From contig CBDCNV010000002.1 in the NCBI GenBank assembly GCA_965219535.1, positions 90,001-122,000 on the forward strand: 32,000 nt of DNA, written 5' to 3'. The stretch is from Opitutales bacterium. Its GTDB lineage: Bacteria > Verrucomicrobiota > Verrucomicrobiia > Opitutales > PNEW01. Below are positions 4,475 to 30,194 of this stretch, piece after piece. The notes beneath the pieces were generated by a model. The model was not told where the DNA came from. It did no database searches and was given only the letters and a program-made list of their open reading frames with translations. The position numbers were made by a program, and so were the translations under genes. Within the stretch, counting starts at the first letter, position 1; each line of letters starts with the position of its first letter.

Positions 4475-4747
4475 GCGAACTTCACGGGCAAACAGCGAGG
4501 CATGGTGGCCCGGAACCCGGCCAGTTCCAGAAGCTCGCTGAGGTGGGCTTTGGCCTGAGCAAGATTGACCGTGATTATGATAACAAATAATGTAATGCAA
4601 GCGATTTAAAATTTGTTAATTTCCGGGTCAATTTCAGTCAAGTTTAATGTTTGCCATATGTAACGGAATAGTTGCCTAAATTAATTATATACTCTCTCAT
4701 CTATGTGCAAAGCGATATCAAGCGTAAGCTGGCGTAACTATATGTAA

Positions 4748-9857: not shown

Positions 9858-10815
9858 TTACACGAACTGGTCCACTGAGAGAGTTAGTCTGGAGAGGTTA
9901 ATGTTGAAGTTAAGTTGGTAGAGGAAGTCAAGACTTGGGCGCAATGAGGGCGTAGCCCGAATGGAGCCCGAGCCTTCGGTATTGAGGTTTTGAGCGAAAC
10001 GTTGTGGAGTAATATTGCCGAGGCTGCGGTGGGGTCGAACATGATTGTAAAGCCAGCGCCAATCTTCGATCACCACGCGGGCTTCGGTCAAAGTCCACAG
10101 TTGTTCACGATTTAGACACTCCTCGCGAAAACGTGCATGCAACGATTCGATGTATCCGTTCTGCCAAGGGCTTCCTGGTTCGATATAGAGGGTATTGATT
10201 TTCATCGCCGTTAGCCAGACTCTCAATTCACTTCCAATAAACTCCGATCCATTGTCGCTGCGAATATATTTTGGCGGCCCATGACGGTCGAGCAGTTTTT
10301 GCATGACCCCGCGCACCTTCTGCGCATTGATATGGCGATCGACATGGATCACCCGGCACTCGCGGGTGTACTCGTCAAGGACGGTGAGCATTTTGAGATT
10401 CCCACCGCGGACCGTCTTATCATGGATAAAGTCCCAGGTCCAAACATGGTCGGGATGTTCGGCCTTCGTCGGCAGCCCGGTGGAGACACCCCTGCGCCGG
10501 CGTCTTGGCTTGCGTGGGGGGATCGCCAGACCCAGTTCACGTCGCAGACCTTGCACGAGCCGTTTACCCACCTGCCAGCCTTCGTCCTTCAACAGCTTCG
10601 TGATCTTCGGATAGCCCCACCTCGCGTATTGCCGTGATAACCGCCTTACTGCCGCCTTCTGTTTCGTTAGCCAGGCATCAGGATACTTCGCCCGATACGC
10701 ATAGGTGGAGCGGTGCAGGTGAAAGTATCGGCACGCTCCACGTATCGAACACTGGCCCCGGGCCACAAGTCTCTCTGCCACTTGCCGCTTGTGCCCAGGG
10801 CTTACAGTTTTTTTT
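9858..10815 (-). CDS. IS3-family transposase OrfB (DDE integrase core), expressed as an OrfAB fusion by -1 frameshift
   Basis: The ORF track has 9858..10781 from an internal GTG. The -1 frame is open from the A8 run (KKTVSPGHKRQVAERLVARG...). DDE/rve motifs: WTWDFIH, YIRSDNGSEFIG, PGSPWQNGYIESLHARFREECL, YNHVRPHRSLG. Confidence 0.85.
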
Positions 10816-11068
10816 CGAGCGTCTCCTGCAGAATCTCTATCCCCAGCAGCTTGTCCGCCAGCATCCGCTTTAATCGCGCGTTCTCCTTCTCGAGTTCCTT
10901 CATCCGCTTGGCCTGGTTGACATCAATCATCCCAAGCTCACGTTTCCAGCGGTGGAAGGTCTGTTCGCTTATGTTGTTCTCGCGGCATACTTCCAGGATC
11001 GTTTTTCCTTTGTCTGCCTGCCGCAGCATCCGTATCTTCTCTTCGGTTGTATATCTTTTGCCTTTCAT
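10802..11068 (-). CDS. IS3-family transposase OrfA (HTH)
   Basis: ORF track: MKGKRYTTEEKIRMLRQADKGKTILEVCRENNISEQTFHRWKRELG..., with a leucine-zipper-like tail. It ends GAA AAA AAA CTG TAA at the slippery run. Confidence 0.85.
   Translation of the reverse strand: MKGKRYTTEEKIRMLRQADKGKTILEVCRENNISEQTFHRWKRELGMIDVNQAKRMKELEKENARLKRMLADKLLGIEILQETLEKKL
10808..10815 (-). promoter_or_regulatory. programmed -1 ribosomal frameshift site (A8 slippery run) between IS3 orfA and orfB
   Basis: The minus strand reads G AAA AAA AAC TGT AA. The orfA stop is 4 nt downstream. The orfB frame is -1 relative to orfA and open through the run. Confidence 0.7.
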
Positions 11069-11454: not shown

Positions 11455-11732
11455 ATGAGCGGGGAAGTAAAACAAATTTCATACGACGATGTTCCATTTC
11501 TTATTAATTCATATCCGTTAACACATCCGAATAGACTGGCAGTGATTGGAATGTTGTTTGGGATGAGTACAACACAAGTTGATCGTTGTCGGGTGCTGGA
11601 ATTAGGCTGTGCTCAGGGAGGAAATCTGATCCCGATGGCTTTCAACTTTCCTCATAGTGAATTTGTCGGAATTGATTATTCTTCAAAGCAAATTGAATCA
11701 GGACAAAAAATTATTGATTCGGTAAAAATTAA
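11455..11732 (+). pseudogene. 5' part of a class I SAM-dependent methyltransferase (with C-terminal 'methyltransferase regulatory' region), interrupted by an IS1595-family element
   Basis: YDDVPFLINSYPLTHPNRLAVIGMLFG...VLELGCAQGGNLIPMA (SAM motif I)...VGIDYS. The reading frame rejoins 12476 exactly when the IS and one TSD copy are removed (..SVKIK|NITLKQGDVLEF..). Confidence 0.8.
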
Positions 11733-12467
11733 GGGTCATGCCTAGAACAGAGGGTATCTTAAGCACATATTAAGGATGTTACGATGGAGGTTTTGATGAC
11801 GATGGTTAAAGCGATATTCAGTTTCTTTGAGGTGCAGTTGGAAGGTCCTACGAGAAAGACCTTTGAACTTAGCCAATCGAAGTTTAGCAAAAGCCCAAAA
11901 AGATTCAATCCCGTTAATGTGGGAGTGTCCCTGGGCAAACTCGTTGTCGTTGTGATTGACACGGTAATGCTTCTTATAGCCCAGATCCACGAGGCCGTTG
12001 TAAGCACGCCACCCGTCAGAATAAAGCACACTGTCAAAAGTAACTCTCCCTTGGATCACCGCATGCAGAGCGGCTCTGGAGACGTTGCGTACAACCTGGG
12101 TATAGACTTTCCCATTACGCTTGAGCAACCCGAAGACGGGCACTTTCTTGAATGCACCCCGACCTCTTTGCCCTGGAATTCTTTTGCCTCCAAAGTAGGA
12201 CTCATCCATTTCCACCGACCCCCTAAAAGGCGAGGCCTGCGCACATTGCTGCAACAAACGCTCCCGCAACAAGCGCAAATAACGGTTGACCGTGTTACGA
12301 TTCAATCCTGTCAATTGGGCTATCTTCAACGCTTCCATATCCAAGCTAAAACACTTTACTAACTGCCGAAATTTGGCCTCAGAAATTTTTGAACGATGTA
12401 CATACTTATTTCTCATTTGTCTAGAATAGCTTACACATCTGATATGTGTCTATTCTAGGCATGACCC
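11733..12467 (-). mobile_element. IS1595-family insertion sequence, 735 bp, with perfect 8-bp target-site duplication
   Basis: The terminal inverted repeats are GGGTCATGCCTAGAA (11733-11747) and TTCTAGGCATGACCC (12453-12467). The direct repeat AAAATTAA flanks both ends (11725-11732 and 12468-12475). There is a single transposase ORF inside. Confidence 0.9.
11742..12416 (-). CDS. IS1595-family (ISXO2-like DDE) transposase, 224 aa
   Basis: ORF track: VEMDESYFGGKR..GQRGRGAFKKVPVFGLLKRNGKVYT...LYSDGWRAYNGL...HYRVNHNDNEF...HINGIESFWAFAKLRL...ETEYRFNHR. The stop lies inside the left IR. Confidence 0.9.
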   Translation of the reverse strand: MRNKYVHRSKISEAKFRQLVKCFSLDMEALKIAQLTGLNRNTVNRYLRLLRERLLQQCAQASPFRGSVEMDESYFGGKRIPGQRGRGAFKKVPVFGLLKRNGKVYTQVVRNVSRAALHAVIQGRVTFDSVLYSDGWRAYNGLVDLGYKKHYRVNHNDNEFAQGHSHINGIESFWAFAKLRLAKFKGLSRRTFQLHLKETEYRFNHRHQNLHRNILNMCLRYPLF

Positions 12468-12475
12468 AAAATTAA

Positions 12476-13781
12476 AAATATCACTTTGAAGCAAGGGGAC
12501 GTTCTTGAATTTGGTGAGAATGAAGAGAAGTTTGATTACATTATAGCTAAAGGAATATTTTCATGGGTATCTAGAGACGTCCAAGACAAGATTTTAAAAA
12601 TCTGTAGAGATCACCTGAATCCTCAAGGCATCGCTTATATTAATTATAATACCTATCCGGGGTGGAGGGTATTAGGTATGTTCAGGGACATGATGAAGTA
12701 TCACACCTCTAAAATGAGCGATCCGGAAACGATCGCTAATCAGTCCCGTGCGCTCATGGCCTTATTAAGTATGGGAGCTGAATCGGACAAAAGACCCTAT
12801 GGGGAGTTTTTAAAATCAGAATTCGAGAAAATAAAAAAATATCCTAATGATCATATTATTCGAATATACCATGAAGGCATTAATGAACCTTGTTATTTTC
12901 ATGAATTCTCAAGAAGAGCGGATGATTTCGGTTTACAGTATTTAGGTGAAGCAGAATTTCATGAAATGCTATCCAGTGATTTTACCCCGAAGGTTAGAGA
13001 GACGCTTAACAAATTAACTAATGATTTAACTGCCAGAGAACAGTATATGGATTTTTTGAGAAATTCGACACAACGCCAAACGCTGCTCTGTCATAAAAAT
13101 ATAAAATTAAACAGAGCTATCAACATTGATATAATTAATAGTTTTTATATAACGCGGTCGACAATTTTGAAACCTGAATCGGATAAGCTTAAATTAGAAG
13201 AGGAAAAAGATTATACATATACGGGAAGAAATAATATAAAAGTGACATGCAGGAGTCTATTGGAGAAAACTTATTTTAAGCGTTTAAATGATTTAGCGCC
13301 CCAGGCTATTATGCATAAAGATGCTTTTGAATATACTCAAAAGGATATTTATGAAAATACAGGGAAAAAAATATCGGATAATGAGAGAGTAAAATTAAGC
13401 AGGTTTCTATTAAACTGCTATGCGAATGGAATAATTAAATTAAATTCGAGCACAACTAAGGTGGTTAATAAAGTAAGTGAGTTTCCAATGACATCAGAGC
13501 TGGCGCGCTATCAAGCGCGAGCGAGCTTGAAGATTACAAATCAGAATCATACATCTTTGTCCATTGATTTACTCCTTCAACAGATGATTCAATTACTCGA
13601 TGGGGAAAATAATTTGAAGACAATAAAAGATAAGTTATTGATATTGGCTGATTCAGGTGAACTGATATTTAATAAGGATAATGAAATTGTCAGTGATAGG
13701 GTAATGATCGAAAAAATAATCGATGAAAAATTAGAGACGAATTTAAACCTACTATTAAAACTCTCGTATTTAATAGGGTGA
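12476..13781 (+). pseudogene. 3' part of the IS-interrupted SAM-dependent methyltransferase (methyltransferase regulatory-domain region)
   Basis: Continuation of 11455..11732: FDYIIAKGIFSWVSRDVQDKILKICRDHLNPQGIAYINYNTYPGWRV... The ORF track starts it at TTG 12486, which is in frame with the upstream half. Confidence 0.8.
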
Positions 13782-17074: not shown

Positions 17075-18160
17075 TCACTTACTGCACAAGCTAATCAATT
17101 CCAAGCGATTACGCACGCGGGCTTTGCGTAGAATATGGCGAATATGAGTCTTTATCGTGGTCAGAGAAACCCCCAGGGTATCGGCGATACGGGAAGCTGA
17201 ATTACCATCCATAATTAAATCGCCTACTTCTCTTTCTCGTTTTGAAAGCTCTATTTTTTTTGCAAATTCGTTAAAGGATGCAGATTTTCTTATCAGTCGT
17301 TTTTGCAGGTTTGTCGTGAGCAGAAGATAGGGCCTGACACCGAGCGAGCTTTTGAAGGCCAGATAGCGTACCGCACCTTCTAAATATTCAGTACCCGTTA
17401 CCGGCATCTCCAACCGTACCAGTGGGCCCTGGGTAATGGCCATCCTTGAAGAGACCTGAGGTACCGTGCTTTTCTGGTATATTTTAATCGCTTCGTCGCA
17501 GGCTTCCTCCCAATCAGAAGGGAGGGCAACTTGACGTGGCAACGTATAATTTTTTACTGCTTCCCGTCCATGTTCCCAGATGTAGAGATGCTCTCTAAAT
17601 GGCGTATTATCGAAAGTAAGTCTTTTATTAGTATCGAGCAGGCATAAGCCTTCGGAGTAGATGTTACTGACAAGCCGAAAAAAACCGACAACAAACTCCT
17701 GTTCCTGTTCCTGGGAGAGAAGGACAAAACAACGGTCGAGATGTTTGCCGACATTATTCGCAAGTTGGATCTCCTCATCGCTGAAAGGATTTCCATCCCG
17801 AAAAAGGAAGAGAATGAATAATGCTTTGCCTTTACGGCGAAGGGGAATAATCTGAATATGCGCAGTCTTAGTGGGTGAGAGCTCACGCCCCAACGATTTT
17901 AATAGCGCTTCTGTCTCACGATTAATTCCATATTGGGTAAGTCGAAAAAGCGATTGTTGATTCGGGAACTTGCTATTTTCCCGAATGCCTTTGGCAATTA
18001 TCATATTGTTACCGCCAGCGTTGAAACTGGGTGGGAAGAGACAGGCCCAGGCATTTAATTCAAATATGCCCATGACGTCCTTTAACGCTTGTTCAAACCC
18101 GGTAAGGGTACGTTGATAAGAAAGATTGAGGAGACAATCTGTAAGTTTTGATGACTCCAT
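17075..18160 (-). CDS. LuxR/FixJ-type HTH transcriptional regulator with a large uncharacterised (GAF/PAS-like?) N-terminal sensor region
   Basis: ORF track. The C-terminal LSKREREVGDLIMDGNSASRIADTLGVSLTTIKTHIRHILRKARVRNRLELI is a canonical LuxR_C HTH. There is no receiver-domain Asp pocket or autoinducer-binding pattern that I can recognise. Confidence 0.8.
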   Translation of the reverse strand: MESSKLTDCLLNLSYQRTLTGFEQALKDVMGIFELNAWACLFPPSFNAGGNNMIIAKGIRENSKFPNQQSLFRLTQYGINRETEALLKSLGRELSPTKTAHIQIIPLRRKGKALFILFLFRDGNPFSDEEIQLANNVGKHLDRCFVLLSQEQEQEFVVGFFRLVSNIYSEGLCLLDTNKRLTFDNTPFREHLYIWEHGREAVKNYTLPRQVALPSDWEEACDEAIKIYQKSTVPQVSSRMAITQGPLVRLEMPVTGTEYLEGAVRYLAFKSSLGVRPYLLLTTNLQKRLIRKSASFNEFAKKIELSKREREVGDLIMDGNSASRIADTLGVSLTTIKTHIRHILRKARVRNRLELISLCSK

Positions 18161-18184: not shown

Positions 18185-20443
18185 CTAGCGAAGGGAACGC
18201 ATGTTATTGTCCCAAAATGAAACGACACCGCGCCAGATTTTTTTACCCAAGGTGGTTTTTTTCCCGAGGATAGTAGCCTGTACGCGCATGCCTTCAAAAA
18301 CCTGATAATCTTTTACATGATTGACGAGTGGAGCTTCGGCAAGAAAAAGGGCAAATTGTGGATCGTTGGTACCTAAACCATTCTGTCGGTCTTGTGCATT
18401 ACCCTGTTCTCGTGGAGCGGGGCCACCAAAAGCGGTATACATCGCTAACATGTAATTTTCAAAAGATGCTCGTTGACGCGGAAAGACATCAATTGCCGTC
18501 TCAAATTTTACCGCGTCGGCTTTCCATCGACCACGAACTTCACTGCCGAGTTCGATAAGTTGTATTTCACTTTCTGATAGAGGCAGAATAAGGCGTAAAT
18601 TTTCGCGTGAACCTATGCGCATTAAATCCTGTTTAGGGTTGATGTACTTTCCCGCCAGTCGGTGGATATCAGAGGAGAGCACGAAACCGGAGATCGTAGC
18701 TTTTAGCTCAAGGGTGTCAGCTTCTTCACGGATTCTCCGATAATGAGTTTCAGCCACTTCTAAAGCTGCCGCTGCTTCTGCCATATACCTGGCAGTGTTC
18801 CAGGAGCCATCATTATGTAATACCCCATACTGTAATTTCGCTTTTTCAAAATCGGCGTGTGCAATCTCGAGTTCAGCTTTGAGAGAGGGATTCTTCAGCC
18901 TGGCGACAATCTCTCCAGCTTCGACCCAATCACCTGTTTTGACGAATACATCCTCGACCAGTCCCCCCATTCGAGAGGCAATGATTTCGCTTTCACTATA
19001 GCGAACGATTCCCTGGCGATTGACATTATAACGACTGGGTAGAATAGCGATGATCAGAATGATTGCGAGCAAGGCAATACCCATGAAAATGTTTCGTCTT
19101 TTCGTCGACTCGACTTTGATTATATGAGGGGCCGCTTCGGGGTTAAAAACATCGGACAAAATTTTTGCGATAGGAAATCCGATAAATGAAATCTGGGCAA
19201 ATACTCCCAATCCTAAACCAAATTCACCAAGACCATAAGGAGCGAGAACACGCGCAAATATTTGGCTGAGGGAATAGATGATGAAGGCCATATACAAAAA
19301 GGCGCTGATCGCGTAAATTACAAAAAACTTACCGTCTGTATGGATGTCGAATGATCGTTCCTGAAAAGTGTTGCGGATCCCAAAAAGAAATTGCTGGACG
19401 CGGTAGGAACAGTAGGTGATGGATTTTGTTCGTAAATTAGGAATTTCCATCCAGTCACTGATAACATAATAACCATCAAACCGCATCAACGGATTCAAAT
19501 TAAAAAATATGGTATTAATGCTCGCGACGAACATAATATTAAACGCAATGTTCTTGAGCAGACCGGGTGAGAGGTAAAGCCAAGCATATACGCAAATGGA
19601 AGCGATGACAAATTCTGTGAAAACACCGGCTAAGGTAGTATAAATTTTATGCCGTTTGTGTTTCATCATATAGGCGTCTGACGCGTCAACGTAACCACAG
19701 GGGGTCAAACAGATCAGACAGACACCCATCTCATGCACTTCTCCGCCAAAATAACGACAAGTCGTAGCATGTCCTAACTCATGGCAGGTTTTTACGAAAA
19801 TAATTGATAGCCATAGGAGAATAAGATTAGCGGGAGATAAAAAATTTATATCGTTGTGTGAAAAGGCTTCGCGGTTGACGAAGAGCCAGAATATTGTAAA
19901 CGCGAAAAAGCCGAGGCAGCCCCAGACAAACCAGCGTGACCAAAGAAACGTAATCTTTGAAGTTAAAGTGCTTAACCAGGGACTGGGGTCAATAAGCGGG
20001 AGCTTTAGAAAGATAAGCTTCTGCATACTCGTCATCCATAGACGAATGATGCTGTTTGCCTGATGAGGTTTTTGACGGGCAAAATCGACAAAACGGCGAG
20101 CACTGATGTTGAGAAGCCCCCCCATCCCCAACTGTTGAATAAAGGTGGCCAGGTCCTCCAATTTAATCGTGCTATTAGGATATTGCTGCGAGAATTCATT
20201 TAAAACCGCCTTTAAATTTTTCTTCCCATCAAGTAAATTTATAATAAATGCCTCTTCGGGGCGCAGGCGAAAATAAGTTAAAGCGAGGGGATCCTTGATG
20301 ACAAAATACTCTTCTTTTTTAAAGAATTGTTTCTGAATAACGAGGTCCGCTCTCAGCCGCGAAGGGACCATATTCTCCAAATCTGTATTTTCTTGAGTCG
20401 GAGCTGAGGGATCCGTTTCCACAGGCAGTGAAACCGTATTCAT
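18185..20443 (-). CDS. fusion protein: PqqD-like N-terminal domain + polytopic M50 (site-2) zinc metalloprotease + HlyD-type periplasmic adaptor (752 aa)
   Basis: ORF track. HELGH (HExxH) sits in a TM helix and the second S2P motif is FFNLNPLMRFDG (NxxPxxxxDG). After a further TM segment (IFMGIALLAIILIIAILP) comes a lipoyl-like hairpin GGLVEDVFVKTGDWVEAGEIVARLKNP...LKATISGFVL with a coiled coil. The N-terminal EEAFIINLLDGKKNLKAVLNEFSQQYPNSTIKLEDLATFIQQLGMGGLL resembles PqqD/RRE domains. Confidence 0.8.
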   Translation of the reverse strand: MNTVSLPVETDPSAPTQENTDLENMVPSRLRADLVIQKQFFKKEEYFVIKDPLALTYFRLRPEEAFIINLLDGKKNLKAVLNEFSQQYPNSTIKLEDLATFIQQLGMGGLLNISARRFVDFARQKPHQANSIIRLWMTSMQKLIFLKLPLIDPSPWLSTLTSKITFLWSRWFVWGCLGFFAFTIFWLFVNREAFSHNDINFLSPANLILLWLSIIFVKTCHELGHATTCRYFGGEVHEMGVCLICLTPCGYVDASDAYMMKHKRHKIYTTLAGVFTEFVIASICVYAWLYLSPGLLKNIAFNIMFVASINTIFFNLNPLMRFDGYYVISDWMEIPNLRTKSITYCSYRVQQFLFGIRNTFQERSFDIHTDGKFFVIYAISAFLYMAFIIYSLSQIFARVLAPYGLGEFGLGLGVFAQISFIGFPIAKILSDVFNPEAAPHIIKVESTKRRNIFMGIALLAIILIIAILPSRYNVNRQGIVRYSESEIIASRMGGLVEDVFVKTGDWVEAGEIVARLKNPSLKAELEIAHADFEKAKLQYGVLHNDGSWNTARYMAEAAAALEVAETHYRRIREEADTLELKATISGFVLSSDIHRLAGKYINPKQDLMRIGSRENLRLILPLSESEIQLIELGSEVRGRWKADAVKFETAIDVFPRQRASFENYMLAMYTAFGGPAPREQGNAQDRQNGLGTNDPQFALFLAEAPLVNHVKDYQVFEGMRVQATILGKKTTLGKKIWRGVVSFWDNNMRSLR

Positions 20444-20446
20444 GGC

Positions 20447-21844
20447 TTATTCGTCTCCATTTCCATCGACCGGCGAAGCAATAGCATACTCGACTTGAGC
20501 GATAGCGGAATTGTAATTATAAAGGGAGCGAGATAAATTAATCTGGGAACGGCGCAAAATAATTTGTGCATCGAGAACTTCTTCCAAGCCGACTTGCCCG
20601 ACTTCATAGAGTCGTTCAGCCTGATGTAGATTTTCATTACCTAAAGCCACGGATGTCCGATGGAAGTTTATGACTGAACGGGATTGTGCAATTTGCGCAT
20701 AAAATTCCTGAATTTGCGAGGTTATTCTATATTCTAACTCCTGGTAGCGAATCTGCGCATCTCTCGCCTCTGCCTTCTGCGATGTGATGACACCTGATCG
20801 CTGGAATCCATCAAAAATATTCCATTGTCCGACAGCTCCAATCGTCCATCCATCCAAATCTTTGTTTGAATCATAATAAGAGGATCTAATCGAGTAATTT
20901 GCATAGACCTCGAGCATGGGAAGCCACTCTCCATGAGCGGCATTTACGCCTTTTTTTGCCGCTTCCCACCGATAGCGGGCTGCTTGAAGGTCACCCCGTT
21001 TTTTTAAAGCCAGCCCCAGGGCTTTTCCAAAGGAAATATCAAATGGTTGTTCTTCCAATTTACCGGCCAGTGTTACTCGGTCACTTAGTGGATCTACAGA
21101 TTGGGGCAATACCAGCAAACGTCGAAAAATCTGTTCGGCTTGAATCAAATTGGATTCTGATTCGGCCAGCTCAGCAATGGCATTTTGTAGTTCTGTCCGT
21201 ACTCTGAGGATTTCGTAATCGGTGACCTCACCTGCAGCTTTCTTTTTCCCTGCAATATTCAGGACTGTTTCAAAAGTTTTAACGGTCTCTTTCCGAATAT
21301 CGACGACTGAAATTGAATAGAGCAGTTGATCGAATGCCTGTTTAACAAAAGAGACAACTTTCCGATTTGTATCTTCTGATGTAGCTTCTGCCCCTTTGTA
21401 AATCAGAGATTCCTGTTGATACCGATTCCATCGCTTTAACCCATCAAATACAACTTGCCGAAACTCTACAGAGCCTGAATAGGCATCTTGCGTGATTGCG
21501 GTTTGCTCGGAAGGTACTTGATCGAGCTCATTGGGATTGCGGTCGATAAGCTCTTCATCGCGTCCATTCGCAGAGCCAATGAGCCTCATCGTAGGGAGCA
21601 AATCCGATCTGACCTGGACCCTTAACCCTCGTTGCCGGGCCATTAATGCATCGGCCCTTTGGATGTCGGGATTGACCGACAATGCCCGCTCAATAGCATT
21701 CGCGATCGTCCAAGGCGCATTGAGTTCGCTCTTGGTAACAGCCGATTTCTCATTTTCCTTTTCTGCTGCGAGATCCACTCCAACAAGAAGAAGACACAGG
21801 GATAAAAGGCAGAAAATAAATAAAGATCTACTCAATCGATTCAA
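20447..21844 (-). CDS. TolC-family outer-membrane efflux/secretion channel (OEP repeats), signal peptide
   Basis: ORF track. The N-terminal signal is MNRLSRSLFIFCLLSLCLLLVG. There are two OEP-type repeats (WTIANAIERALSVNPDIQRA...LLPTM; ...ALKKRGDLQAARYRWEAAKKGVNAAHGEWLPML). Apparent TTG start. The stop is 3 nt from the M50-HlyD ATG. Confidence 0.85.
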   Translation of the reverse strand: MNRLSRSLFIFCLLSLCLLLVGVDLAAEKENEKSAVTKSELNAPWTIANAIERALSVNPDIQRADALMARQRGLRVQVRSDLLPTMRLIGSANGRDEELIDRNPNELDQVPSEQTAITQDAYSGSVEFRQVVFDGLKRWNRYQQESLIYKGAEATSEDTNRKVVSFVKQAFDQLLYSISVVDIRKETVKTFETVLNIAGKKKAAGEVTDYEILRVRTELQNAIAELAESESNLIQAEQIFRRLLVLPQSVDPLSDRVTLAGKLEEQPFDISFGKALGLALKKRGDLQAARYRWEAAKKGVNAAHGEWLPMLEVYANYSIRSSYYDSNKDLDGWTIGAVGQWNIFDGFQRSGVITSQKAEARDAQIRYQELEYRITSQIQEFYAQIAQSRSVINFHRTSVALGNENLHQAERLYEVGQVGLEEVLDAQIILRRSQINLSRSLYNYNSAIAQVEYAIASPVDGNGDE

Positions 21845-21932: not shown

Positions 21933-23312
21933 TCACCTCGACACTTTTAATAAATAGAGGCCAGTTTGTTTCTCTTTCATGAGCACAGGTTGAGTGGTCG
22001 ATTCATGGCTGAGTTCTTGATAGATAGAGCTTAAAGAGTATTGAATAAGTTTAAGGGAGAACTCGGGGCCACGTGCGTCTTCTAAATGATAAATACTTCC
22101 GCGTGTCACCCGTAACAGATCTTTTACCACAACCCTGGCCAAGGGGGCATGTATTTTTGAAAAGTAACCCAGGGAAATTGTAATATCGAATGTCTGGTCT
22201 TCGAAAGGGAGTGGCTCCTCAGGATTAAAAAACTGGATTTTCGGATTTTCATCACCGGTTAAGTTCTTTGCGGCCTCTACTTTATAGTGCGCGTCCTCGA
22301 TTCCTGTGATCTCCCAATCAGGTTTGGTTTTTTTAAAGAGAATCAAGTCTTTTCCCCAGCTGGCACCCAATATCAAAACCTTTTTAATCTTACTATGATC
22401 GTCAATTTGCTGGAGAAGAAAATCACCCAAGGGGTTCAGCTTATCATCAGGACGGTTATTCCATTTCTCGACCTCAATTTTCGTAGAAAAAGCTTCGTCA
22501 TTTACGATCGCTGTTTCAGGATAGGGGTCGAGCAGAGCTTGAAAAAGGGGGGGTGAATAAGACGTGCCGGAAAACTGTGGTGTGCCGATACCATTTTCAC
22601 TCTTTTTATCGATATGAAATTTAAGTCCGAGAAATGAAGCACCCCACAAATAAGCATCGGCGAATGTTTGCACTTTTAATTGGAGCCCATTCATATCCCA
22701 GTTCAAGGGATTCTCCTCCGAGGGCAGCTTCTTTTCCTGGCATATATCAAACGCATCCTTATCGAGAAGGCCCCAAACAGCATCTATCAGAGCATTTATT
22801 GTTACCAGGTACGAACTCCAGGAAGCGTAATCAGTCATTGAAGCTGTGCGGATGGGATGCATCAATCGTGAATAGGAGGCAATTTTAGGAGGTAGAAAGT
22901 GCTCAAGGGCCTTGCGGGATAGACCATTAAGAAAAGTGATCCAACCGTGTCCGCCCTCATTAAGCATACTTAATATGCTTTGGAGAGAGGATAAATTCCC
23001 CTTCCAATAATTGTGAATCTGGTAAAAAATGAGACTATCAAAGGGGCCATTAGCTTTCACTCTTTTCTCATACCAACTGAGGTCCCAGGGGTCGCTTCCC
23101 AGGTTTTTAAAGTCGTCGAGATAGGTGTGAAGTTTTGCTTGTGGTTCAACGAGACTTAATTTAACTTTTTTCCCATACTTGTCCTGTAAGCTCCTTGCCA
23201 ATCTGCCGTCCCCTGCGCCGACAATAGCCACATGCTTGACATCATCATTTACAAGTTCGATAATTTTCTCTTCCAGGGCATTAAGAATAGGGGGGGAGTT
23301 CTTACAGCGCAT
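21933..23312 (-). CDS. hypothetical protein with two Rossmann/class I methyltransferase-like halves
   Basis: ORF track. There are two motif-I-like segments: HVAIVGAGDGRLARSL (N-terminal half) and KKVLILGASWGKDLILF...ITGIEDAHYKVEAAKN...FDITISLGYF (C-terminal half). It is the first gene of the minus-strand operon containing the TolC-family gene. Confidence 0.45.
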   Translation of the reverse strand: MRCKNSPPILNALEEKIIELVNDDVKHVAIVGAGDGRLARSLQDKYGKKVKLSLVEPQAKLHTYLDDFKNLGSDPWDLSWYEKRVKANGPFDSLIFYQIHNYWKGNLSSLQSILSMLNEGGHGWITFLNGLSRKALEHFLPPKIASYSRLMHPIRTASMTDYASWSSYLVTINALIDAVWGLLDKDAFDICQEKKLPSEENPLNWDMNGLQLKVQTFADAYLWGASFLGLKFHIDKKSENGIGTPQFSGTSYSPPLFQALLDPYPETAIVNDEAFSTKIEVEKWNNRPDDKLNPLGDFLLQQIDDHSKIKKVLILGASWGKDLILFKKTKPDWEITGIEDAHYKVEAAKNLTGDENPKIQFFNPEEPLPFEDQTFDITISLGYFSKIHAPLARVVVKDLLRVTRGSIYHLEDARGPEFSLKLIQYSLSSIYQELSHESTTQPVLMKEKQTGLYLLKVSR

Positions 23313-23429: not shown

Positions 23430-25631
23430 ATGGAGACCCACCCCAACACAGCGAGTTCACAAGTCCAACAAGTTGTAGCAGGCATATCCGCACAACTGGC
23501 GCAACTGGCAAAAGATCCCCCAGATTTGACCGCCTATCTTCGCGCGCACGCTAATCTGTTGAACCAAGCACTCCGGCCCCAAGGATTAACGTATGAAATT
23601 CTAAGCGGGTCGACGTTCAAGCGGCTCTTTTCGGTTAATCTGAAACAGTTAAAGCTGGAAGAAAACCCGGCTCAAGATGAGTCCTTTCGCAAAGCTGTCA
23701 ATGAAGTGGCGTTGGGGAAGAAACCCATGGTCTTTCAACCAAATTCCCGCTCGCGTGACGGGGGTGACAATCTGGCCATAGATACCGCGGTTACGAGCGA
23801 GCACCTCAAATTATTTAACGATACCCCATTTGAACAATTTTTTATTCCCATACCCATGGAGTCCAAGGTTGCCGGCGTATTGCATGCCTGGTTTAAACCC
23901 GTAAATAGTGAAACCACGAATACCCGCTTGCTTTTACTTAAGCATTTTTGTGAGGAAGTCGTTCTCTATCTGCGCAGTCGACGAGCTACCGATCTTACCC
24001 AGGAGTTAACACGAACAAATACTTATTCACATCTATTAGAAGACTTGGCCGGTGATATAGATTTAGATTCTGTTGCTTGGAATATTGTAAATTTTGCTCG
24101 TGAAACGGTAGATTGTGAGCGCGTATCCATTTTTCACGTAAAGAACTTTCCGCATCAAAATGGGCATGGGTTGGATTTTGAGATTTTAGCCTGTAGTGGA
24201 TTAAAGCGTCCGCATGCCCGTAGTGAACAAGCAGAAATTCTTAAGGACCTGGTAAAAGAATTGGCAAAATTTACACTGAGTGACACGGTGGCAATTCAAT
24301 CGCAAAAGTCATCGGAGTCACATACCGCCGTGACGCCACAGATCGTGGATCAAACAGCTGAAACAAGTGAAAAAGGAGAAGCACTCTTGCGTTCACCCGG
24401 ATCGAAAGATCAATCAAATGAGAAGGTCAAAGTTCCTGAGAAGCCATCCCATACGCTGCCTTCCGGGGACCGCCCACGATTTCACCTCACCTTTACCTAT
24501 CGCGATCCGGAGAAAACAGCATCGCGTCCTGATTCCATCAATCAGTACTTTGATTTAATTCCCATGAATTGGGCTACTTCCCTTCCCCTTTTTGATCGCG
24601 AGGGACTGATTTGCGGAATTTTGCTCTTTGAAGGGCGAAATAATGCGGAGAAGGCCAAGAGCACCTTTTTGCACATGCGGGATCTGGCTTATTCTGGCGG
24701 ACGTTCTCTGGGAACTTCGCTATATTGGAATAAACGACGGTCTTTCCGAGTTATTAAAGAAGTTGCGCGTTTAAAAACGCGTTATGTCAATTCGGATAAG
24801 CGTACGCTGATGCTTAAGGTGGGGCTACCCATTGCGCTCGTCTTACTCGTCTTGTGTCTGCCTTTTAAATTCAAGATTAGAGGGGATGCGTATCTGAGGC
24901 CCACTAATTTTCAGTCTTTGCCCGCAATGGTTTCAGCCCGCCTGGACAAAGTATTAATTAGAGAAGGACAAGCGGTAAATGAAGGGGAACTCCTGGCGGT
25001 TCTCGAAACACGTGACCTTGATTTGCAGTTACACCAGGCACAGCAGGAGTATCAACGCCACATGGCGGAATCAGATATGGCGCGCAACATGGGCGAAGAA
25101 ACTCAGATGCAAGTCTCTCAGCTCAATGCCCGTAAATCAGCGGCAACGATAGATAAACTCCGCTATGAATTATCCCATGCAGAAGTACGTGCGCCTTTCG
25201 CCGGAGTTGTTATTGGCCCATTGAACCTCCAAATGCGAGTGGGGAATGTCTTTAAGATAGGAGAACCCGTGGTAGAAATGGCCAAACCTGGCAGCTGGGA
25301 AGTAAAAATTGATGTTAAAGAAAAGGATTTAGTTTTTCTCGAGCGGTACATGCGTAAGCATGATACGATTACTTCTGATGTTAAATTTAATGCTGATCTG
25401 ACCGAGACGTACAGTTTAGAGCTCAATCATCCTGACCAATTAGCATATGGGTTGGAAACGGGCAGTGACAATTACTCTTTTGCCGTAGTTTTACCCATGG
25501 GAGAATCAATCGACACTGAGAATTTAAAAATGGGTTATACCGGCAATGCCGCATTTGTAATTGGTAGACGCCCCCTGGCATACATTATGTTCCGTGATGT
25601 CGTACACTTTATGAGAGTCAGGTGGTTCTGA
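23430..25631 (+). CDS. HlyD-type membrane-fusion/adaptor protein with a long cytoplasmic N-terminal region containing GAF-like domain(s), single TM (733 aa)
   Basis: ORF track. GAF-like stretches: DLDSVAWNIVNFARETVDCERVSIFHV...WATSLPLFDREGLICGILLFEG. TM: LMLKVGLPIALVLLVLCLPF. HlyD lipoyl hairpin: VSARLDKVLIREGQAVNEGELLAVLETRDL, then a coiled coil, then EVRAPFAGVVIG. Confidence 0.7.
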   Translation: METHPNTASSQVQQVVAGISAQLAQLAKDPPDLTAYLRAHANLLNQALRPQGLTYEILSGSTFKRLFSVNLKQLKLEENPAQDESFRKAVNEVALGKKPMVFQPNSRSRDGGDNLAIDTAVTSEHLKLFNDTPFEQFFIPIPMESKVAGVLHAWFKPVNSETTNTRLLLLKHFCEEVVLYLRSRRATDLTQELTRTNTYSHLLEDLAGDIDLDSVAWNIVNFARETVDCERVSIFHVKNFPHQNGHGLDFEILACSGLKRPHARSEQAEILKDLVKELAKFTLSDTVAIQSQKSSESHTAVTPQIVDQTAETSEKGEALLRSPGSKDQSNEKVKVPEKPSHTLPSGDRPRFHLTFTYRDPEKTASRPDSINQYFDLIPMNWATSLPLFDREGLICGILLFEGRNNAEKAKSTFLHMRDLAYSGGRSLGTSLYWNKRRSFRVIKEVARLKTRYVNSDKRTLMLKVGLPIALVLLVLCLPFKFKIRGDAYLRPTNFQSLPAMVSARLDKVLIREGQAVNEGELLAVLETRDLDLQLHQAQQEYQRHMAESDMARNMGEETQMQVSQLNARKSAATIDKLRYELSHAEVRAPFAGVVIGPLNLQMRVGNVFKIGEPVVEMAKPGSWEVKIDVKEKDLVFLERYMRKHDTITSDVKFNADLTETYSLELNHPDQLAYGLETGSDNYSFAVVLPMGESIDTENLKMGYTGNAAFVIGRRPLAYIMFRDVVHFMRVRWF

Positions 25632-26476
25632 TGGGTGTTCATGTCCCTCTCATTAAAAGCGCTTTAGCACTTATTACCCTACTTTTCCTCCAATCGCTTT
25701 TAGCGATTGGCCAGTCTCCCTCTTTATCAACCTACCCTCTCGACCCGGGATCTTATCGAGGATCACTGCGTTCAGTCTTGCTGCCCCGAGAAGATATTAA
25801 ACTTAGTGCGGCCTCTGCGGGGATCATTAAGATATATCACGTAAAAGAAGGGCAGCGGGTAGTAGCCGGGGACGTCATCCTGGAACTCGATTCAAGGGAA
25901 GAAGAAGCCGCGGTTAATCAGGCGGAGGCAGTTTTGGATGGTGCCGCGGCAGAGTTGGAAAAAGCGCGCAAAGACATGAAGCGGGTGGAAAAGCTCTACA
26001 AGGATAACATTCAGAGTGAGAAACAATATGAAGAAACGGTCTATATTTTGGCAAAAGCGGAAAGCCAATACCAACATACCCAAGCTTCAAAAAAAGCCGC
26101 TGAGATCCGTCTCGATAAAAAGAAGATAAAATCCCCTATCGATGGTATTTTTCTGAAAAAATATAAGTCTGTGGGCGAATCTGTTGAGCGCCTGGAAACG
26201 GTGGCGCGTGTCCTCGATGATACACGTTTAGAGCTTGTTGTTTATTGCGGATCACAACTCTTTGGCACTTTACATTCTGACACGACCCTGAACATAGAAA
26301 TTCTCGATGGGCCCGCGCGCGGAGAACAAGCAACGGCCGAGGTTGTCTATGTTGATCCTCTCATTGATCCCTCGAGTGGTACTTTTCGCGTCAAACTGGA
26401 GATCAGTCCCTCTGAAAATATATCCGCAGGATTTGCAGCGCGCCTGATAATTTCCGACAGTATGACTTCTAAATAG
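25631..26476 (+). CDS. short HlyD/RND-type periplasmic adaptor subunit with signal/anchor sequence
   Basis: The ORF track starts at GTG 25622. ATG 25631 overlaps the upstream stop as TGATG. N-terminal hydrophobic segment: LIKSALALITLLFLQSLLAIG. SAGIIKIYHVKEGQRVVAGDVILELDSREEEAAV, then a coiled coil, then IKSPIDGIFLKKYKSVGESV. Confidence 0.8.
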   Translation: MGVHVPLIKSALALITLLFLQSLLAIGQSPSLSTYPLDPGSYRGSLRSVLLPREDIKLSAASAGIIKIYHVKEGQRVVAGDVILELDSREEEAAVNQAEAVLDGAAAELEKARKDMKRVEKLYKDNIQSEKQYEETVYILAKAESQYQHTQASKKAAEIRLDKKKIKSPIDGIFLKKYKSVGESVERLETVARVLDDTRLELVVYCGSQLFGTLHSDTTLNIEILDGPARGEQATAEVVYVDPLIDPSSGTFRVKLEISPSENISAGFAARLIISDSMTSK

Positions 26477-26553: not shown

Positions 26554-27831
26554 GTGGCATTAAGACCCTCCATAATAATGGGTCTTCAGCTTGAATTGCT
26601 TGAAGACCGGACTTTGTTGGCATCAGACTTCCCCTGGCTGGATGCAGCCGTGGAGGCTGATTCCCATTATCAGTTTGAATATGTGTGGTTCCCGAGTGAC
26701 TCGCAAATCACTTTAAAGGGTGATAATACCGGAAATTTAGTTATCAATGTGGATTTTTTGCCCAATAATGTTAAAAATATTTCAGCGTCTTCATTTGCCG
26801 ATGTATCCCTTGTGGGGACGCGTGGCGTTGACCGGCTTTTTGCGGCCGATCTGGGAAATCTGAACGTAGAGATTCCTGTCCATAAGTCACTTATAACAGA
26901 TGATGTCGACATGCTCGGTCTTTTTGAGCCGGCGCCCTTCACCCTTCTCGAGGGGAGCGATATCTTTATTGAAGCGGGGGATTTTACGGAGACATTTCTT
27001 TACAGTGATCTTGAGACTCTGGAATTGAAAATAAATGACCCTGAAAGTACTCTCTGGTTATTAAGTTTGAATCCCGACCAGACAGTGCGCGCCAATTTTG
27101 TCCCTGATGATTTCACATTAATTGGGCTGGAGAATTCGCAACTTGGGATCCTGGGCGAGGAAACTGAAATTCAGATTGATGTGGACTCCCTCCTTGCTGA
27201 TCTCCGTGCAAATGAAACGCAAAATCTTGCGTTGATTTCGTCTGATTTGGGTTTCAATGAGTCGGTTTTATCTCAATCAGGATCAGCGATTGAGAATACG
27301 ATTATTCCTGCGAGTGAATCTTTTTCGCTGGCTCAACCTTTAAGTGTAGCGGTATCAACCAATACCGACGCCATAGCACCTGAAAGAAGCGAGAATCTGG
27401 ATGTGGCGAATGAGCGTCTGAGCGAAGAATCACTCTATGCTTATTATTTAGAAAACTTCTACAATTCCGGAGCGTGGTTGCCAGATCAATTTGTAGCGGA
27501 TGATAGGGCGCCCTATGATGAAATAGATTTTAATTCAATAAGCAGCGATCTTTTTACTTCATTAGATATGGACGCAGGTATTATAATTGAAGCTCCTCTC
27601 TCTGAGGGCAGTGGAGAACAAGGGGTAGCAACCGTTGAACCCACTTGGCTGGAAAAAGTGGAACTACGTATGAATGAACTGCTTGCGCGATCAAATAACA
27701 CGCGGCTCTCCATGGGTGAACATCTACTCATGCGCGCCGCCAACGAATTCACTCCCGGAGAACGCCCCGGTTTGATCGTCGATACTAAAGCCCCGTCGAA
27801 GAACAGTTTTAGCGCGGCCGTAACGTCATGA
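26554..27831 (+). CDS. highly acidic, cysteine-free hypothetical protein with N-terminal LELLEDRTLLA motif (candidate exported cargo)
   Basis: ORF track (GTG 26554; alternative ATG 26578 gives MGLQLELLEDRTLLA). It has no cysteine, a strong D/E excess and no classical signal peptide h-region. I recognise no domain. Confidence 0.6.
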   Translation: MALRPSIIMGLQLELLEDRTLLASDFPWLDAAVEADSHYQFEYVWFPSDSQITLKGDNTGNLVINVDFLPNNVKNISASSFADVSLVGTRGVDRLFAADLGNLNVEIPVHKSLITDDVDMLGLFEPAPFTLLEGSDIFIEAGDFTETFLYSDLETLELKINDPESTLWLLSLNPDQTVRANFVPDDFTLIGLENSQLGILGEETEIQIDVDSLLADLRANETQNLALISSDLGFNESVLSQSGSAIENTIIPASESFSLAQPLSVAVSTNTDAIAPERSENLDVANERLSEESLYAYYLENFYNSGAWLPDQFVADDRAPYDEIDFNSISSDLFTSLDMDAGIIIEAPLSEGSGEQGVATVEPTWLEKVELRMNELLARSNNTRLSMGEHLLMRAANEFTPGERPGLIVDTKAPSKNSFSAAVTS

Positions 27832-27843
27832 CGCAATAAATTA

Positions 27844-28119
27844 ATGGCACATAAAAAGAACAATAAAAGGATTATCAGAAACCGGTCATCCATGATATGG
27901 ATGGAAACCCTGGAGCAAAGACAGCTTTTAGCCCCTATTTTTGGTTCCGCTGAGGCTGCCGGGCTCAACTATAACAATACGCCACCAATAACGCGAGACC
28001 CTTCACTGAGTGCCCCTCCAGTTGGCTTGAATGTTCTGAATGCAACCCCTACGAGTGAGGATAAAACCCCGCTCGAAACCGATTTCCCTTCCAACCGCCT
28101 TATCGTCAAGATTGTTTAG
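27844..28119 (+). CDS. small ORF with basic N-terminus followed by METLEQRQLLA motif; possibly the 5' stub of a larger secreted-protein gene
   Basis: ORF track: MAHKKNNKRIIRNRSSMIWMETLEQRQLLAPIF... It ends at the TAG immediately before the repeat array at 28120. Confidence 0.4.
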   Translation: MAHKKNNKRIIRNRSSMIWMETLEQRQLLAPIFGSAEAAGLNYNNTPPITRDPSLSAPPVGLNVLNATPTSEDKTPLETDFPSNRLIVKIV

Positions 28120-28442: not shown

Positions 28443-28793
28443 ATGACACAATTAATTCACAAGGAGTTGAGTGGAAAGATAATAGGTGCAGCATTGACTA
28501 TTTTGAATGAATTAAAACCTGGTTTAGATGAAAAGCTTTATGAAAGAGCATTGTGCATTGAATTACAGGAAGCTGGGCATTCAGTCGAAGAACAAAAGCG
28601 TTTTCGCGTTGATTATAAAGGGCAGTTTATTGAATCGCCAATTTCCGATTTAAATGTGGATGATTTTGTAATTGTTGATACTAAGGTAGTTTCAGATTTT
28701 AATGACTCCCATATGGCCCAAATGTTGGGATATTTGGCCATCATTACAGATTTGGAATTGGCCCTGTTATTAAGTTTCAAAAACGCAAGGTAA
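28443..28793 (+). CDS. GxxExxY-family protein (PD-(D/E)XK nuclease-like fold), C-terminally shortened
   Basis: ORF track: SGKIIGAALTILNELKPGLDEKLYERALCIELQEAGHSVEEQKRFRVDYKG...VIVDTKVVSDFNDSHMAQMLGYLAIT. It ends LLLSFKNAR*, where family members normally continue for about 10 more residues (..FKN.K.E.KR..). Confidence 0.75.
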   Translation: MTQLIHKELSGKIIGAALTILNELKPGLDEKLYERALCIELQEAGHSVEEQKRFRVDYKGQFIESPISDLNVDDFVIVDTKVVSDFNDSHMAQMLGYLAIITDLELALLLSFKNAR

Positions 28794-30194
28794 ACTCAAA
28801 GAGGCAGTTGCGATCTATGAACGTGCGCTGATGATCGAGCCCAATAACGCTAATACGCTTAACAACCTGGGTAATGCACTTTTTGATCAGGGTGAGACAG
28901 AAAAAGCGATTGGAGTCTTTCGCCGCTTGCTTGACCTGAAGCCACATTTTGCCGAAGCACACTCTAATTATTTATTACTGCAGAATTACAGTCCCGTGTT
29001 GGATGAAGAAAATATTTCCATGGAACACAAGGCTTGGGTGGAGAAAAACAAAGTGGACTTATTAAAAATCTCGACCTTTGGGGACAATCGGGATCCAGAA
29101 AGAAAGTTGAAAATCGGTTATCTTTCCCCAGATTTTAAAAAACATTCGGTTGCTTTTTTCCTCGAGCCAATACTTGCGCGTCACAACAAGGAGGATTTTG
29201 ATATTTTCTGCTATTCGGCAGTTATAAGTCCCGATGAAGAGACAGCTCGAATGAAGGAACTGGTAAACCATTGGCGTTCGATTGTCGGACTTTCCGATGA
29301 GCAAGCGGCGGCGCTCATTCGTAAGGACGGAATTGATATCCTGATTGATTTAGCGGGTCATACCGCTAAGAACCGGTTACCTGTATTTTTACATAAACCA
29401 GCTCCAGTGCAGGTGACCTATCTCGGTTATCCTAATCGCACGGGCTTGCCCACTATCGATTATCACCTGACCGATAGTTTTGCCAATCCTCCAAGCAGAA
29501 CAGAAAAATGGAATACGGAAACACTCGTGTGTCTTAATCCTTCAGCCTGGTGTTATCGCCCGTTGAATGATTTCCCTCCTGTAAGTGAACTTCCTGCGCA
29601 GGAGGATGATTCCATCACTTTTGGTTCTTTTAATAATATCAGTAAGCTCAATGAAAATATTTTAAACCTCTGGGGAAGGATCTTAACTAATATTACCAAT
29701 GCCCGTCTTGTGCTGAAATCGAGAAGTCTGGCAGACAGTTTTGTGCAGGAAAGAATACATAAACAATTTGGTTCAATGGGAATAATTCAAGAACGTGTTA
29801 TCTTGCATCCCCATGACTCTTCGTCCCATCGCCACTTGGAACGTTATCACGAGGTAGATATTGCCTTGGATACATTTCCCTATAATGGGACTACGACAAC
29901 CTGCGAAGCACTCTATATGGGTGTGCCGGTAATTACCCTGGAGGGAAAACTCATCGTTCACGCGTGGGAGTGAGCCTTTTAAGCCAAGTCGGGTTACAAC
30001 ACTTAATTGCCAAAAATGAAGAAGATTATGTCTCTATTGCCACTTCCCTGGCATCGGATCTGGGAGCGCTGTCGAATATGCGTAAAACCCTGCGATCCCG
30101 CATGAAGAAGAGCCCATTAATGGATGAGGTTGGTTTTACAAAAGGTTTAGAAAAAGCTTACCGCGAGATGTGGAATAAGTGGACAAGTAGTTAA
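28774..30194 (+). pseudogene. TPR-repeat / GT41 (SPINDLY/O-GlcNAc-transferase-like) glycosyltransferase, N-terminally truncated and frameshifted
   Basis: The frame opens at 28774 in mid-TPR (GKLKEAVAIYERALMIEPNNANTLNNLGNALFDQGETEKAIGVFRRLLDLKPHFAEAH). GT41 body: KIGYLSPDFKKHSVAFF, DILIDLAGHTAKNRL, VQVTYLGYPNRTGL, ITFGSFNN, DTFPYNGTTTTCEALYMGVPVITL. A 1-nt frameshift in GGGAAAA (29943-29949) separates ORFs 28831..29973 and 29964..30194 (..GKTHRSRVGVSLLSQVGL..). Confidence 0.75.

Follow-up and report, generated by a model that had tools for sequence, protein, structure and literature searches.

A 32,000-nucleotide stretch of an Opitutales bacterium contig (CBDCNV010000002.1, positions 90,001 to 122,000; hereafter the window) encodes a 752-residue protein in which a recognition element for peptides that are synthesized ribosomally and modified post-translationally (RiPPs), an M50-type site-2 protease (S2P) core and an HlyD-type adaptor follow one another in a single chain. 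We propose, at a probability of roughly one half, that this fusion protein is an inner-membrane, leader-guided zinc metalloprotease joined to a periplasmic adaptor, so that processing of its substrate is coupled to TolC-linked export. Our analysis was based on predicted open reading frames (ORFs), Pfam and NCBIfam profiles, AlphaFold2 models, Foldseek comparison with the PDB and a set of related loci. Pfam placed Peptidase_M50 at residues 212–292 and HlyD_D23 at residues 473–642, with a weak PqqD match at residues 57–110, and the full-length AlphaFold2 model had a predicted local distance difference test score (pLDDT) of 78.

The predicted structure of the N-terminal domain clearly resembles that of a RiPP recognition element (RRE). 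The model of residues 25–135 (pLDDT 85) has the order β1–β2–β3–α1–α2–α3, with strands at 11–17, 20–27 and 32–36 and helices at 38–46, 53–63 and 71–83 in the numbering of the model, and the ten PDB entries best matched by Foldseek were all RREs, including leader-bound structures of TbiB1 and of lasso-peptide B1 as well as PqqD and CteB, a sactipeptide synthase represented by its RRE. Ranks 1 to 7 had a probability of 1.00 and a target-normalised template modelling score of 0.63–0.75; ranks 8 to 10, all CteB, had probabilities of 0.82–0.97, and SkfB came lower in the list. Proof of an RRE by sequence profiles was tried and given up, only the structure comparison being convincing: Pfam PqqD (PF05402) matched residues 57–110 with an E-value of 0.0066 and 17.2 bits, below the gathering cutoff of 23.4, the NCBIfam PqqD models reached E ~1e-3, below significance, and a family profile run against PDB sequences gave weak matches to PqqD (E 0.25) and TbiB1 (E 1.7). 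For conservation we aligned the fusion protein with 40 relatives of 44–82% identity, of which 18 matched Pfam PqqD at E ≤ 0.01 (best 1e-5). Strand β3, LTYFRL, is nearly invariant across the fusion family, as is the β2–β3 segment KDPLALTYFRL to which it belongs; among the aligned relatives no change was seen in this strand or in three basic residues, R31, K50 and R59. Such a pattern may hint at a leader that binds as an extra strand beside β3.

The central part of the protein matched Peptidase_M50 (PF02163) at 37.8 bits, above the cutoff of 27.2, and carries both catalytic motifs of an S2P, a HExxH in a membrane helix and an NxxPxxxxDG, which in this family provides the third ligand of the zinc. 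H221, E222 and H225 of HELGH were invariant in 40 of the 40 aligned relatives, as were N315, N317, P318, D323 and G324 of NLNPLMRFDG. Membrane helices were modelled at residues 170–189, 204–231 (which holds HELGH), 263–290, 295–315 (which leads into NLNPLMRFDG), 371–403, 406–432 and 447–467, with a β-hairpin of the protease core at residues 238–253. That hairpin, directly past HExxH, lies in a further invariant block, EVHEMG...GYVD..D (residues 235–256, ~19,676–19,741, minus strand), found in all 40 relatives. Because seven helices, an odd number, separate the RRE from the adaptor, and because lysine and arginine are biased towards one side (20, 1, 6 and 1 in the predicted cytoplasmic segments; 1, 0 and 0 in the periplasmic loops), the chain is predicted to run with its N-terminus, which has no signal sequence, inside and its C-terminus outside. 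With this topology the RRE would lie in the cytoplasm and the adaptor in the periplasm, and the zinc of the S2P would be bound close to the cytoplasmic face.

The C-terminal part scored 47.6 bits with HlyD_D23 (cutoff 30), and the last 280 residues of the full-length model matched AcrA, MexA and MacA at E 4e-14 in Foldseek. Lipoyl, α-hairpin and β-barrel elements, by which a membrane fusion protein is recognized, are all present; the α-hairpin is short (residues 519–576, with helices 519–544 and 549–576), and an amphipathic helix (residues 732–751) follows the adaptor domain at the C-terminus. Recognition, cleavage and trans-envelope routing would in this way be carried by one chain. An initial annotation of this DNA had read the gene in the same manner, as a PqqD/RRE-like domain at residues ~25–115, a multi-helix S2P core with both catalytic motifs, and a membrane segment leading to an HlyD-type adaptor, and that interpretation is supported: profiles and model recovered all three parts, the structure prediction and Foldseek search it had proposed for the N-terminal region yielded the RRE fold, with limits now drawn at residues 35–107, and helix 447–467 runs into an AcrA/MexA/MacA-like fold. 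A cytoplasmic adaptor, which it had named as fatal to its view, was not seen, the helix count and the positive-inside rule predicting a periplasmic one.

Homologues of the fusion protein are numerous. At least 4,370 were scored among the candidate set, and relatives are encoded in at least 581 species genomes, mostly of Verrucomicrobiota and Planctomycetota, with a few bins labelled Bacteroidota and one gammaproteobacterium. Searching with the RRE and protease alone (residues 25–440) returned at least 2,908 clusters at 50% identity and E ≤ 1e-30. Nearly every match starts within the first eight residues of the query, and ~85% of the best 150 are 700–766 residues long, commonly ~740, so that proteins with all three parts are the norm. 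An identical copy of the 752-residue protein is encoded on three public contigs from metagenomes or genomes, and its best named relatives, from Opitutae/Opitutaceae, share 45–49% identity with it.

The closest named family is that of the daptide intramembrane metalloproteases (NF041824), which matched residues 44–405 over profile positions 15–351 of 379 at E 1e-46. Since this match spans both parts, the RRE and protease are homologous as one unit to the daptide peptidases. In daptide biosynthesis MpaP/DapP is an RRE-dependent intramembrane leader peptidase, and L(−7) and M(−4) of the leader motif ELExMEAP are essential (Ren et al. 2023, bioRxiv 10.1101/2023.03.08.531785). The fusion protein shares with MpaP/DapP an N-terminal RRE followed by an M50 core, and the L-E-x-[LM]-E spacing of the daptide motif is also that of the LExLExR motif in the leaders described below; MpaP, in contrast, has neither an HlyD domain nor a TolC partner. 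The hosts also differ, being bacteria of the PVC (Planctomycetes–Verrucomicrobia–Chlamydiae) group with an outer membrane for the fusion and Actinomycetota and Bacillota for the daptide peptidase. We considered and rejected an identification as a daptide peptidase proper, as the score of 159.7 bits compares with an equivalog cutoff of 300 and the pathway genes are missing. Unlike daptide loci, the surroundings of the fusion gene hold no short precursors ending in Thr and no set of daptide enzymes: the window has no aminotransferase, alcohol-dehydrogenase-type decarboxylase or DUF-RRE protein, and a methyltransferase is the only daptide-type enzyme in it. Given that the RRE–S2P arrangement is of an already known kind and that the score lies under the equivalog cutoff, the fusion protein is a relative of the daptide family and not a member. 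YydH/LiaK (NF058609), like the fusion an M50-type membrane protease and one that matures a RiPP (epipeptide), matched residues 179–334 at E 1.4e-11 and 44.6 bits (cutoff 225); unlike the fusion, it lacks both an RRE and an HlyD domain.

The genes around the fusion gene correspond to a module that was described computationally by Kamneva, Poudel and Ward in 2015 (PLoS One 10:e0129066, PMC4452313). That module, termed 'type I secretion-related' and devoid of an ATP-binding cassette (ABC) transporter, comprises a GAF-HlyD protein, a Peptidase_M50 protein, an HlyD/biotin-lipoyl protein, a secondary SecA_DEAD protein and sometimes an outer-membrane channel (OEP), and was found in Planctomycetes, Verrucomicrobia, Proteobacteria, Nitrospirae and Chlorobi (PMC4452313). 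Its role was given as "completely unknown", with a regulatory role proposed for the GAF protein, and the paper names no PqqD/RRE, leader or substrate (PMC4452313). Like the module, and in the same phyla, the window has an M50-HlyD, a GAF-like-HlyD, a small HlyD and an OEP gene and no ABC transporter; the core genes lie together (18,185–20,443, 23,430–25,631 and 25,622–26,476). Unlike the module, it showed no SecA_DEAD gene when searched with an approximate Escherichia coli SecA sequence. The GAF assignment comes from homology to a distant locus, L008: residues 130–731 of the window's 733-residue protein align with the L008 GAF-HlyD protein at E 2e-44, and the L008 protein matches Pfam GAF, which gave no direct match in the window's protein. 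By this homology we identify the 733-residue protein as the orthologue of the module's GAF-HlyD component.

Three HlyD adaptor paralogues are thus encoded in the cassette, namely the fusion protein, the 733-residue protein and a protein of ~282 residues. On the minus strand the order is methyltransferase, TolC-like channel, fusion gene and LuxR-type regulator, the ATG of the fusion gene lying 3 nt past the stop of the TolC-like gene, and the plus-strand genes are divergent; the ORF of the small HlyD gene overlaps the 733-residue gene, and gene callers place its start at 25,631. Promoter and terminator scans of the cassette gave chance-level results, and the N-terminal domains of the 733-residue protein, of the LuxR protein and of the first leader-bearing protein described below had no Pfam or PDB-sequence match. 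We compared 84 related loci, numbered L001 onward, among which L081 is the locus of the window in another assembly. The same cassette recurs at 45–54% identity in seven of them (L001, L002, L084, L085, L087, L089 and L090), and L008, at 28% identity, has GAF-HlyD, HlyD, RRE-M50-HlyD and OEP genes in that order on a single strand, with a fusion protein that aligns to the window's from residue 14.

Together, these comparisons point to the fusion protein as a putative leader peptidase of the RRE–S2P kind that acquired a periplasmic adaptor, inside a module that had been noted and left unexplained. The architecture is less novel than the initial annotation had implied, as RRE–S2P fusions are known as daptide peptidases and the M50-HlyD module was described in 2015; what stands is that a literature search found no experimental study of an RRE-M50-HlyD fusion, in agreement with the initial annotation, which knew of no mechanistic work. 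Its other statement, that such proteins bear generic names, was correct: relatives are entered as 'putative peptide zinc metalloprotease protein', 'efflux RND transporter periplasmic adaptor subunit', 'biotin/lipoyl-binding protein' or 'PqqD family peptide modification chaperone', names that are generic or wrong.

Candidate substrates lie next to the module. An 'extracellular' N-terminal signal of planctomycetes, RRLxxExLExRxLLA, now Pfam PF07595, was proposed for export in 2004 (Studholme, Fuerst and Bateman 2004, as cited in PMC8567305). Tuwongella has 52 genes with the signal, including those for 8 of its 10 longest proteins, and proteins that bear it are found in the surface or insoluble fraction, several only in the SDS-soluble fraction, without a classical Sec signal (PMC8567305). 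No machinery was linked to the signal in the literature texts that could be searched. In the window, the two ORFs past the small HlyD gene open in a similar way, each with a basic stretch and ExLExRxLLA within the first 30 residues (LQLELLEDRTLLA and IWMETLEQRQLLA; motifs LELLEDRTLLA and METLEQRQLLA, respectively). PF07595 was the sole Pfam match of both, at 12.8 and 16.0 bits; both scores lie below the threshold (25.5), and the host is verrucomicrobial, not planctomycetal. The product of the first ORF is very acidic (72 D+E and 21 K+R), and no membrane helix, hydrophobic segment or Sec signal was found in it. The second ORF, of 91 residues, appears with 75 or 135 residues in other assemblies and is followed by a PDDEXK_3 gene (28,443–28,793); given that leader-bearing proteins of 970–1,286 residues are encoded nearby in relatives, this ORF may be what is left of a longer gene.

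A leader-bearing gene sits directly beside the module in 8 of the 10 Opitutae-type loci with enough flank, at 45–54% identity (the window/L081, L001, L002, L084, L085, L087, L089 and L090). Although L090 has a rearranged gene order, its leader-bearing gene and the stop of the fusion gene overlap. The syntenic products are 410–610 residues long and homologous past the leader; L085 also has a short leader-bearing ORF of 99 residues. Of 10 leader-bearing N-termini from the loci, 7 had PF07595 as their only Pfam match. Two loci of the Chthoniobacter type, L016 and L041, encode ~120 nt 3′ of the fusion gene a protein with LEALEDRIAP or LEVLEPRIAP that exceeds 1,100 residues, and in three Pirellulales loci two leader-bearing genes lie 2.4–3.2 kb from it. 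We also observed in L089 (15,139–18,999, plus strand) a 1,286-residue protein that has the same N-terminal leader, ..KLEALETRQLLAG, and a weak HemolysinCabind (RTX-type) match; an N-terminal rather than a C-terminal signal would be unusual for an RTX-like repeat protein.

In the mechanism that we propose, the substrate would be synthesized in the cytoplasm, where the RRE would dock its N-terminal LExLE-type leader, and the S2P core would cut the leader off at the cytoplasmic face. In the periplasm the C-terminal HlyD domain and its two paralogues would assemble a duct that joins the TolC-family channel, whose gene is co-transcribed, and the substrate would leave the cell, leader processing being coupled to delivery across the envelope. 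Bacteriocin-type type I exporters combine a C39 peptidase–ABC protein with HlyD and TolC and remove the leader at the cytoplasmic face. The logic proposed here would be akin to theirs, with an RRE–S2P unit in place of the C39–ABC unit: by this analogy a leader peptidase would form part of the export machine, and the adaptor and TolC would finish the route. The differences are that an RRE-guided zinc S2P replaces the cysteine peptidase C39, that the peptidase is fused to the adaptor instead of to an ABC transporter, and that the module in the window has neither an ATPase nor a Gly-Gly leader. In contrast to classical type I secretion, too, proteins of the HlyD and TolC types are present without an ABC transporter, and the candidate signal is N-terminal, not C-terminal. 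Leader binding and cleavage are steps that we infer from homology to a characterized class, and TolC coupling from the fold of the HlyD domain and the structure of the operon; crossing of the inner membrane and the power source would be parts of the same proposal.

The likeliest local substrates would be the products of 26,554–27,831 and 27,844–28,119, and more generally proteins with an N-terminal basic stretch and LExLExRxLLA (PF07595). We arrived at this substrate hypothesis because the M50 protein contains an RRE, because its closest relatives are RRE-dependent peptidases and because leader genes occur in the operons. Tentatively, then, PF07595 proteins, including the giant surface proteins of Planctomycetes and Verrucomicrobia, may be the substrates of a dedicated machine formed by the module. 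On that reading, and with the same reserve, they could use a type-I-like pathway that lacks an ABC transporter and has the RRE-guided S2P as leader peptidase and entry gate. It might be powered in some lineages by the secondary SecA-type ATPase, a part of the same reading that we hold no more firmly.

Several observations weigh against these proposals. The export step has a gap, as the cassette encodes neither a translocase nor an energy source: no ABC, resistance-nodulation-division (RND), major facilitator superfamily (MFS) or other translocase or ATPase was found in it, and the 32-kb window has no ABC, RND or MFS transporter. To our knowledge S2P cores do not conduct proteins, and the candidate substrates range from ~400 to more than 1,700 residues. 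SecA_DEAD as the missing motor was considered and rejected: besides its absence from the window, the same approximate probe gave a SecA-like ORF adjacent or close to the fusion gene in no more than 4 of the 84 loci. These four match the published association with a secondary SecA_DEAD. In many loci, such as L037, L053 and L066, the fusion gene stands alone. The PF07595 matches of the leader-bearing N-termini lie below the gathering score, and some module-bearing species are Proteobacteria, in which we know of no PF07595 signal. A general enrichment of leader-bearing ORFs around the fusion gene was looked for across the 84 loci and rejected, their density (~12 per Mb) being no higher than the background of 52 in the 6.7-Mb Tuwongella immobilis genome; beyond the Opitutae-type clade such ORFs are no denser than this background. 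We therefore rely upon direct adjacency only, which supports the substrate link in only two or three lineages.

Among the alternatives, the one that fares best, though we consider it improbable, is a RiPP or bacteriocin-type system in which the RRE–S2P unit trims a small, possibly methylated peptide for export through HlyD and TolC, the large leader-bearing proteins being mere neighbours. RREs are typical of RiPP pathways (Ren et al. 2023), the closest named family is a daptide peptidase with YydH/LiaK also matching (E 1e-11), a methyltransferase is conserved inside the cassette, and short leader-bearing ORFs exist, of 91 residues in the window and 99 residues in L085. Such a system is hard to reconcile with the syntenic leader gene, whose homology beyond the leader extends over proteins of 410–610 residues, or with the shortfall against the daptide equivalog score; the methyltransferase was the only RiPP-modifying enzyme seen in the window or the annotated related loci, where no decarboxylase, aminotransferase, YcaO or radical SAM enzyme turned up, nor did a family of short, repeated ORFs for precursors.

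Signalling is the classical role of S2Ps, and the cassette could in principle be a device for regulated intramembrane proteolysis that senses an envelope or ligand signal through the GAF-HlyD protein and controls the LuxR protein, the HlyD parts serving only as a scaffold. We regard this as quite unlikely. The neighbourhood of the fusion gene does conserve a regulator of the LuxR/GerE type and a GAF-like sensor protein (the LuxR-type gene in L001, L084, L085 and L089), and a regulatory role for the GAF protein has been proposed (Kamneva 2015, PMC4452313). Against this, L086, L087, L088 and the distant modules lack the LuxR gene, the LuxR protein has no membrane helix, no anti-sigma factor or membrane-tethered regulator was found, and the RRE, three adaptor paralogues and dedicated TolC would be hard to explain. 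There is an equally small chance that the three HlyD proteins and TolC are the periplasmic and outer-membrane part of a glycan or glycolipid exporter driven by a Wzm/Wzt-type ABC transporter that relatives encode nearby, with the protease as an accessory. No more than 10 kb from the cassette, L084, L085, L086, L087 and L089 do have genes of this type (ABC2_membrane and/or ABC_tran with Wzt_C), accompanied by glycosyltransferases and by methyltransferases with MethyTransf_Reg/WHD_PKMT domains, and the window itself has GT2, GT41, PIG-L and PKMT-like genes; yet no Wzm/Wzt genes are present in the 32-kb window or in the distant four-gene module of L008, and the invariant protease motifs and conserved RRE would be left unexplained. 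The database names of some relatives and a weak TIGR01730 match would make the protein a plain adaptor for the efflux of drugs or metals, a reading that is contradicted by the domain content and very improbable, since that match (39 bits) is far under the cutoff of 94.9, the cassette has no RND, ABC or MFS pump, and the RRE and protease, two thirds of the protein, are absent from such adaptors.

The features of the cassette are listed in the table together with the SecA-like ORFs of other loci. In the methyltransferase, which is kept in L001, L085, L086 and L090, only the C-terminal half matched a known methyltransferase domain. Just past the leader-bearing genes lies a tetratricopeptide-repeat and GT41 (O-GlcNAc-transferase-like) gene (28,831–30,194, plus strand) with an apparent frameshift (ORFs 28,831–29,973 and 29,964–30,194), whose position hints that a surface protein could be glycosylated. 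Elsewhere in the window, an IS3-type insertion sequence (orfA 10,802–11,068, orfB 9,858–10,781) was found, which in assembly L081 directly follows the PIG-L gene, so that the locus is polymorphic, and an IS1595-type insertion sequence (11,742–12,416) divides a PKMT-like methyltransferase into 11,455–11,745 and 12,486–13,781. Positions 1–4,500 have a G+C content of ~59%, compared with ~45% in the rest of the window, and contain a gene for a 1,123-residue fusion of a PLD nuclease and an SNF2/helicase (882–4,253, minus strand); a GmrSD-type (DUF262/DUF1524) type IV restriction endonuclease gene (5,450–7,393, plus strand) adjoins them. The G+C-rich block has the look of a defence island or of foreign DNA, or it may be an assembly join.

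Table. Features of the fusion gene and its cassette (window positions), and SecA-like ORFs in related loci (locus positions)
Feature	Position	Strand	Details and basis
RRE-M50-HlyD fusion protein	18185–20443	−	752 aa, ATG start; ORF call, Pfam/NCBIfam domains and AlphaFold2 model
RRE/PqqD-like winged-helix domain, residues 35–107	20123–20341	−	AlphaFold2 fold and PDB matches; coordinates checked by translation
M50/S2P membrane core, residues 170–432	19148–19936	−	six membrane helices and re-entrant β-hairpin; Pfam and AlphaFold2
HELGH zinc-binding motif, residues 221–225	19769–19783	−	membrane helix 2; alignment and translation check
NLNPLMRFDG second S2P motif, residues 315–324	19472–19501	−	end of membrane helix 4; alignment and translation check
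Seventh membrane helix, residues 447–467	19043–19105	−	anchors adaptor; AlphaFold2 model, preceding basic stretch KRR
Membrane-fusion (HlyD/AcrA-like) domain, residues 469–731	18251–19039	−	predicted periplasmic; Pfam HlyD_D23 and HlyD_3, Foldseek
TolC-family outer-membrane channel (OEP)	20447–21844	−	Pfam OEP E 1.4e-46; TIGR01844 E 5e-33
S-adenosylmethionine (SAM) methyltransferase	21933–23312	−	459 aa, first gene of minus-strand operon; domain match
LuxR/GerE-type regulator	17075–18160	−	24 nt downstream of fusion gene; Pfam/NCBIfam; uncharacterized N-terminal domain
GAF-like-HlyD protein	23430–25631	+	733 aa; HlyD domains; 458-residue cytoplasmic region, one membrane helix ~459–477
Small HlyD/RND_mfp adaptor	25622–26476	+	~282 aa, signal-anchored; TIGR01730 140.6 bits (cutoff 94.9)
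Candidate substrate 1	26554–27831	+	417–425 aa; N-terminal ..LQLELLEDRTLLA at nt 26584–26622
Candidate substrate 2 or truncated remnant	27844–28119	+	91 aa; basic N-terminus then METLEQRQLLA, nt 27895–27933
SecA-like ORF, L011	7565–9910		approximate E. coli SecA probe
SecA-like ORF, L035	478–3108		approximate E. coli SecA probe
SecA-like ORF, L070	4695–6737		approximate E. coli SecA probe
SecA-like ORF, L075	12034–14118		approximate E. coli SecA probe

The proposal joins two open problems, a PF07595 signal without assigned machinery and a module described in 2015 without a known role. Each genome of Planctomycetes and Verrucomicrobia encodes dozens of surface proteins that carry RRLxxExLExRxLLA instead of a Sec signal. 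If our proposal is true, these would follow a new secretion route, RRE biology would reach past small natural-product peptides to large secreted proteins, and the leader would offer an export tag for engineering Planctomycetes and Verrucomicrobia. If the substrate link is wrong, there would still be an uncharacterized and very common architecture that has been mislabelled as an efflux adaptor. The main value of the finding is a testable link to an export signal that has been an orphan for twenty years.

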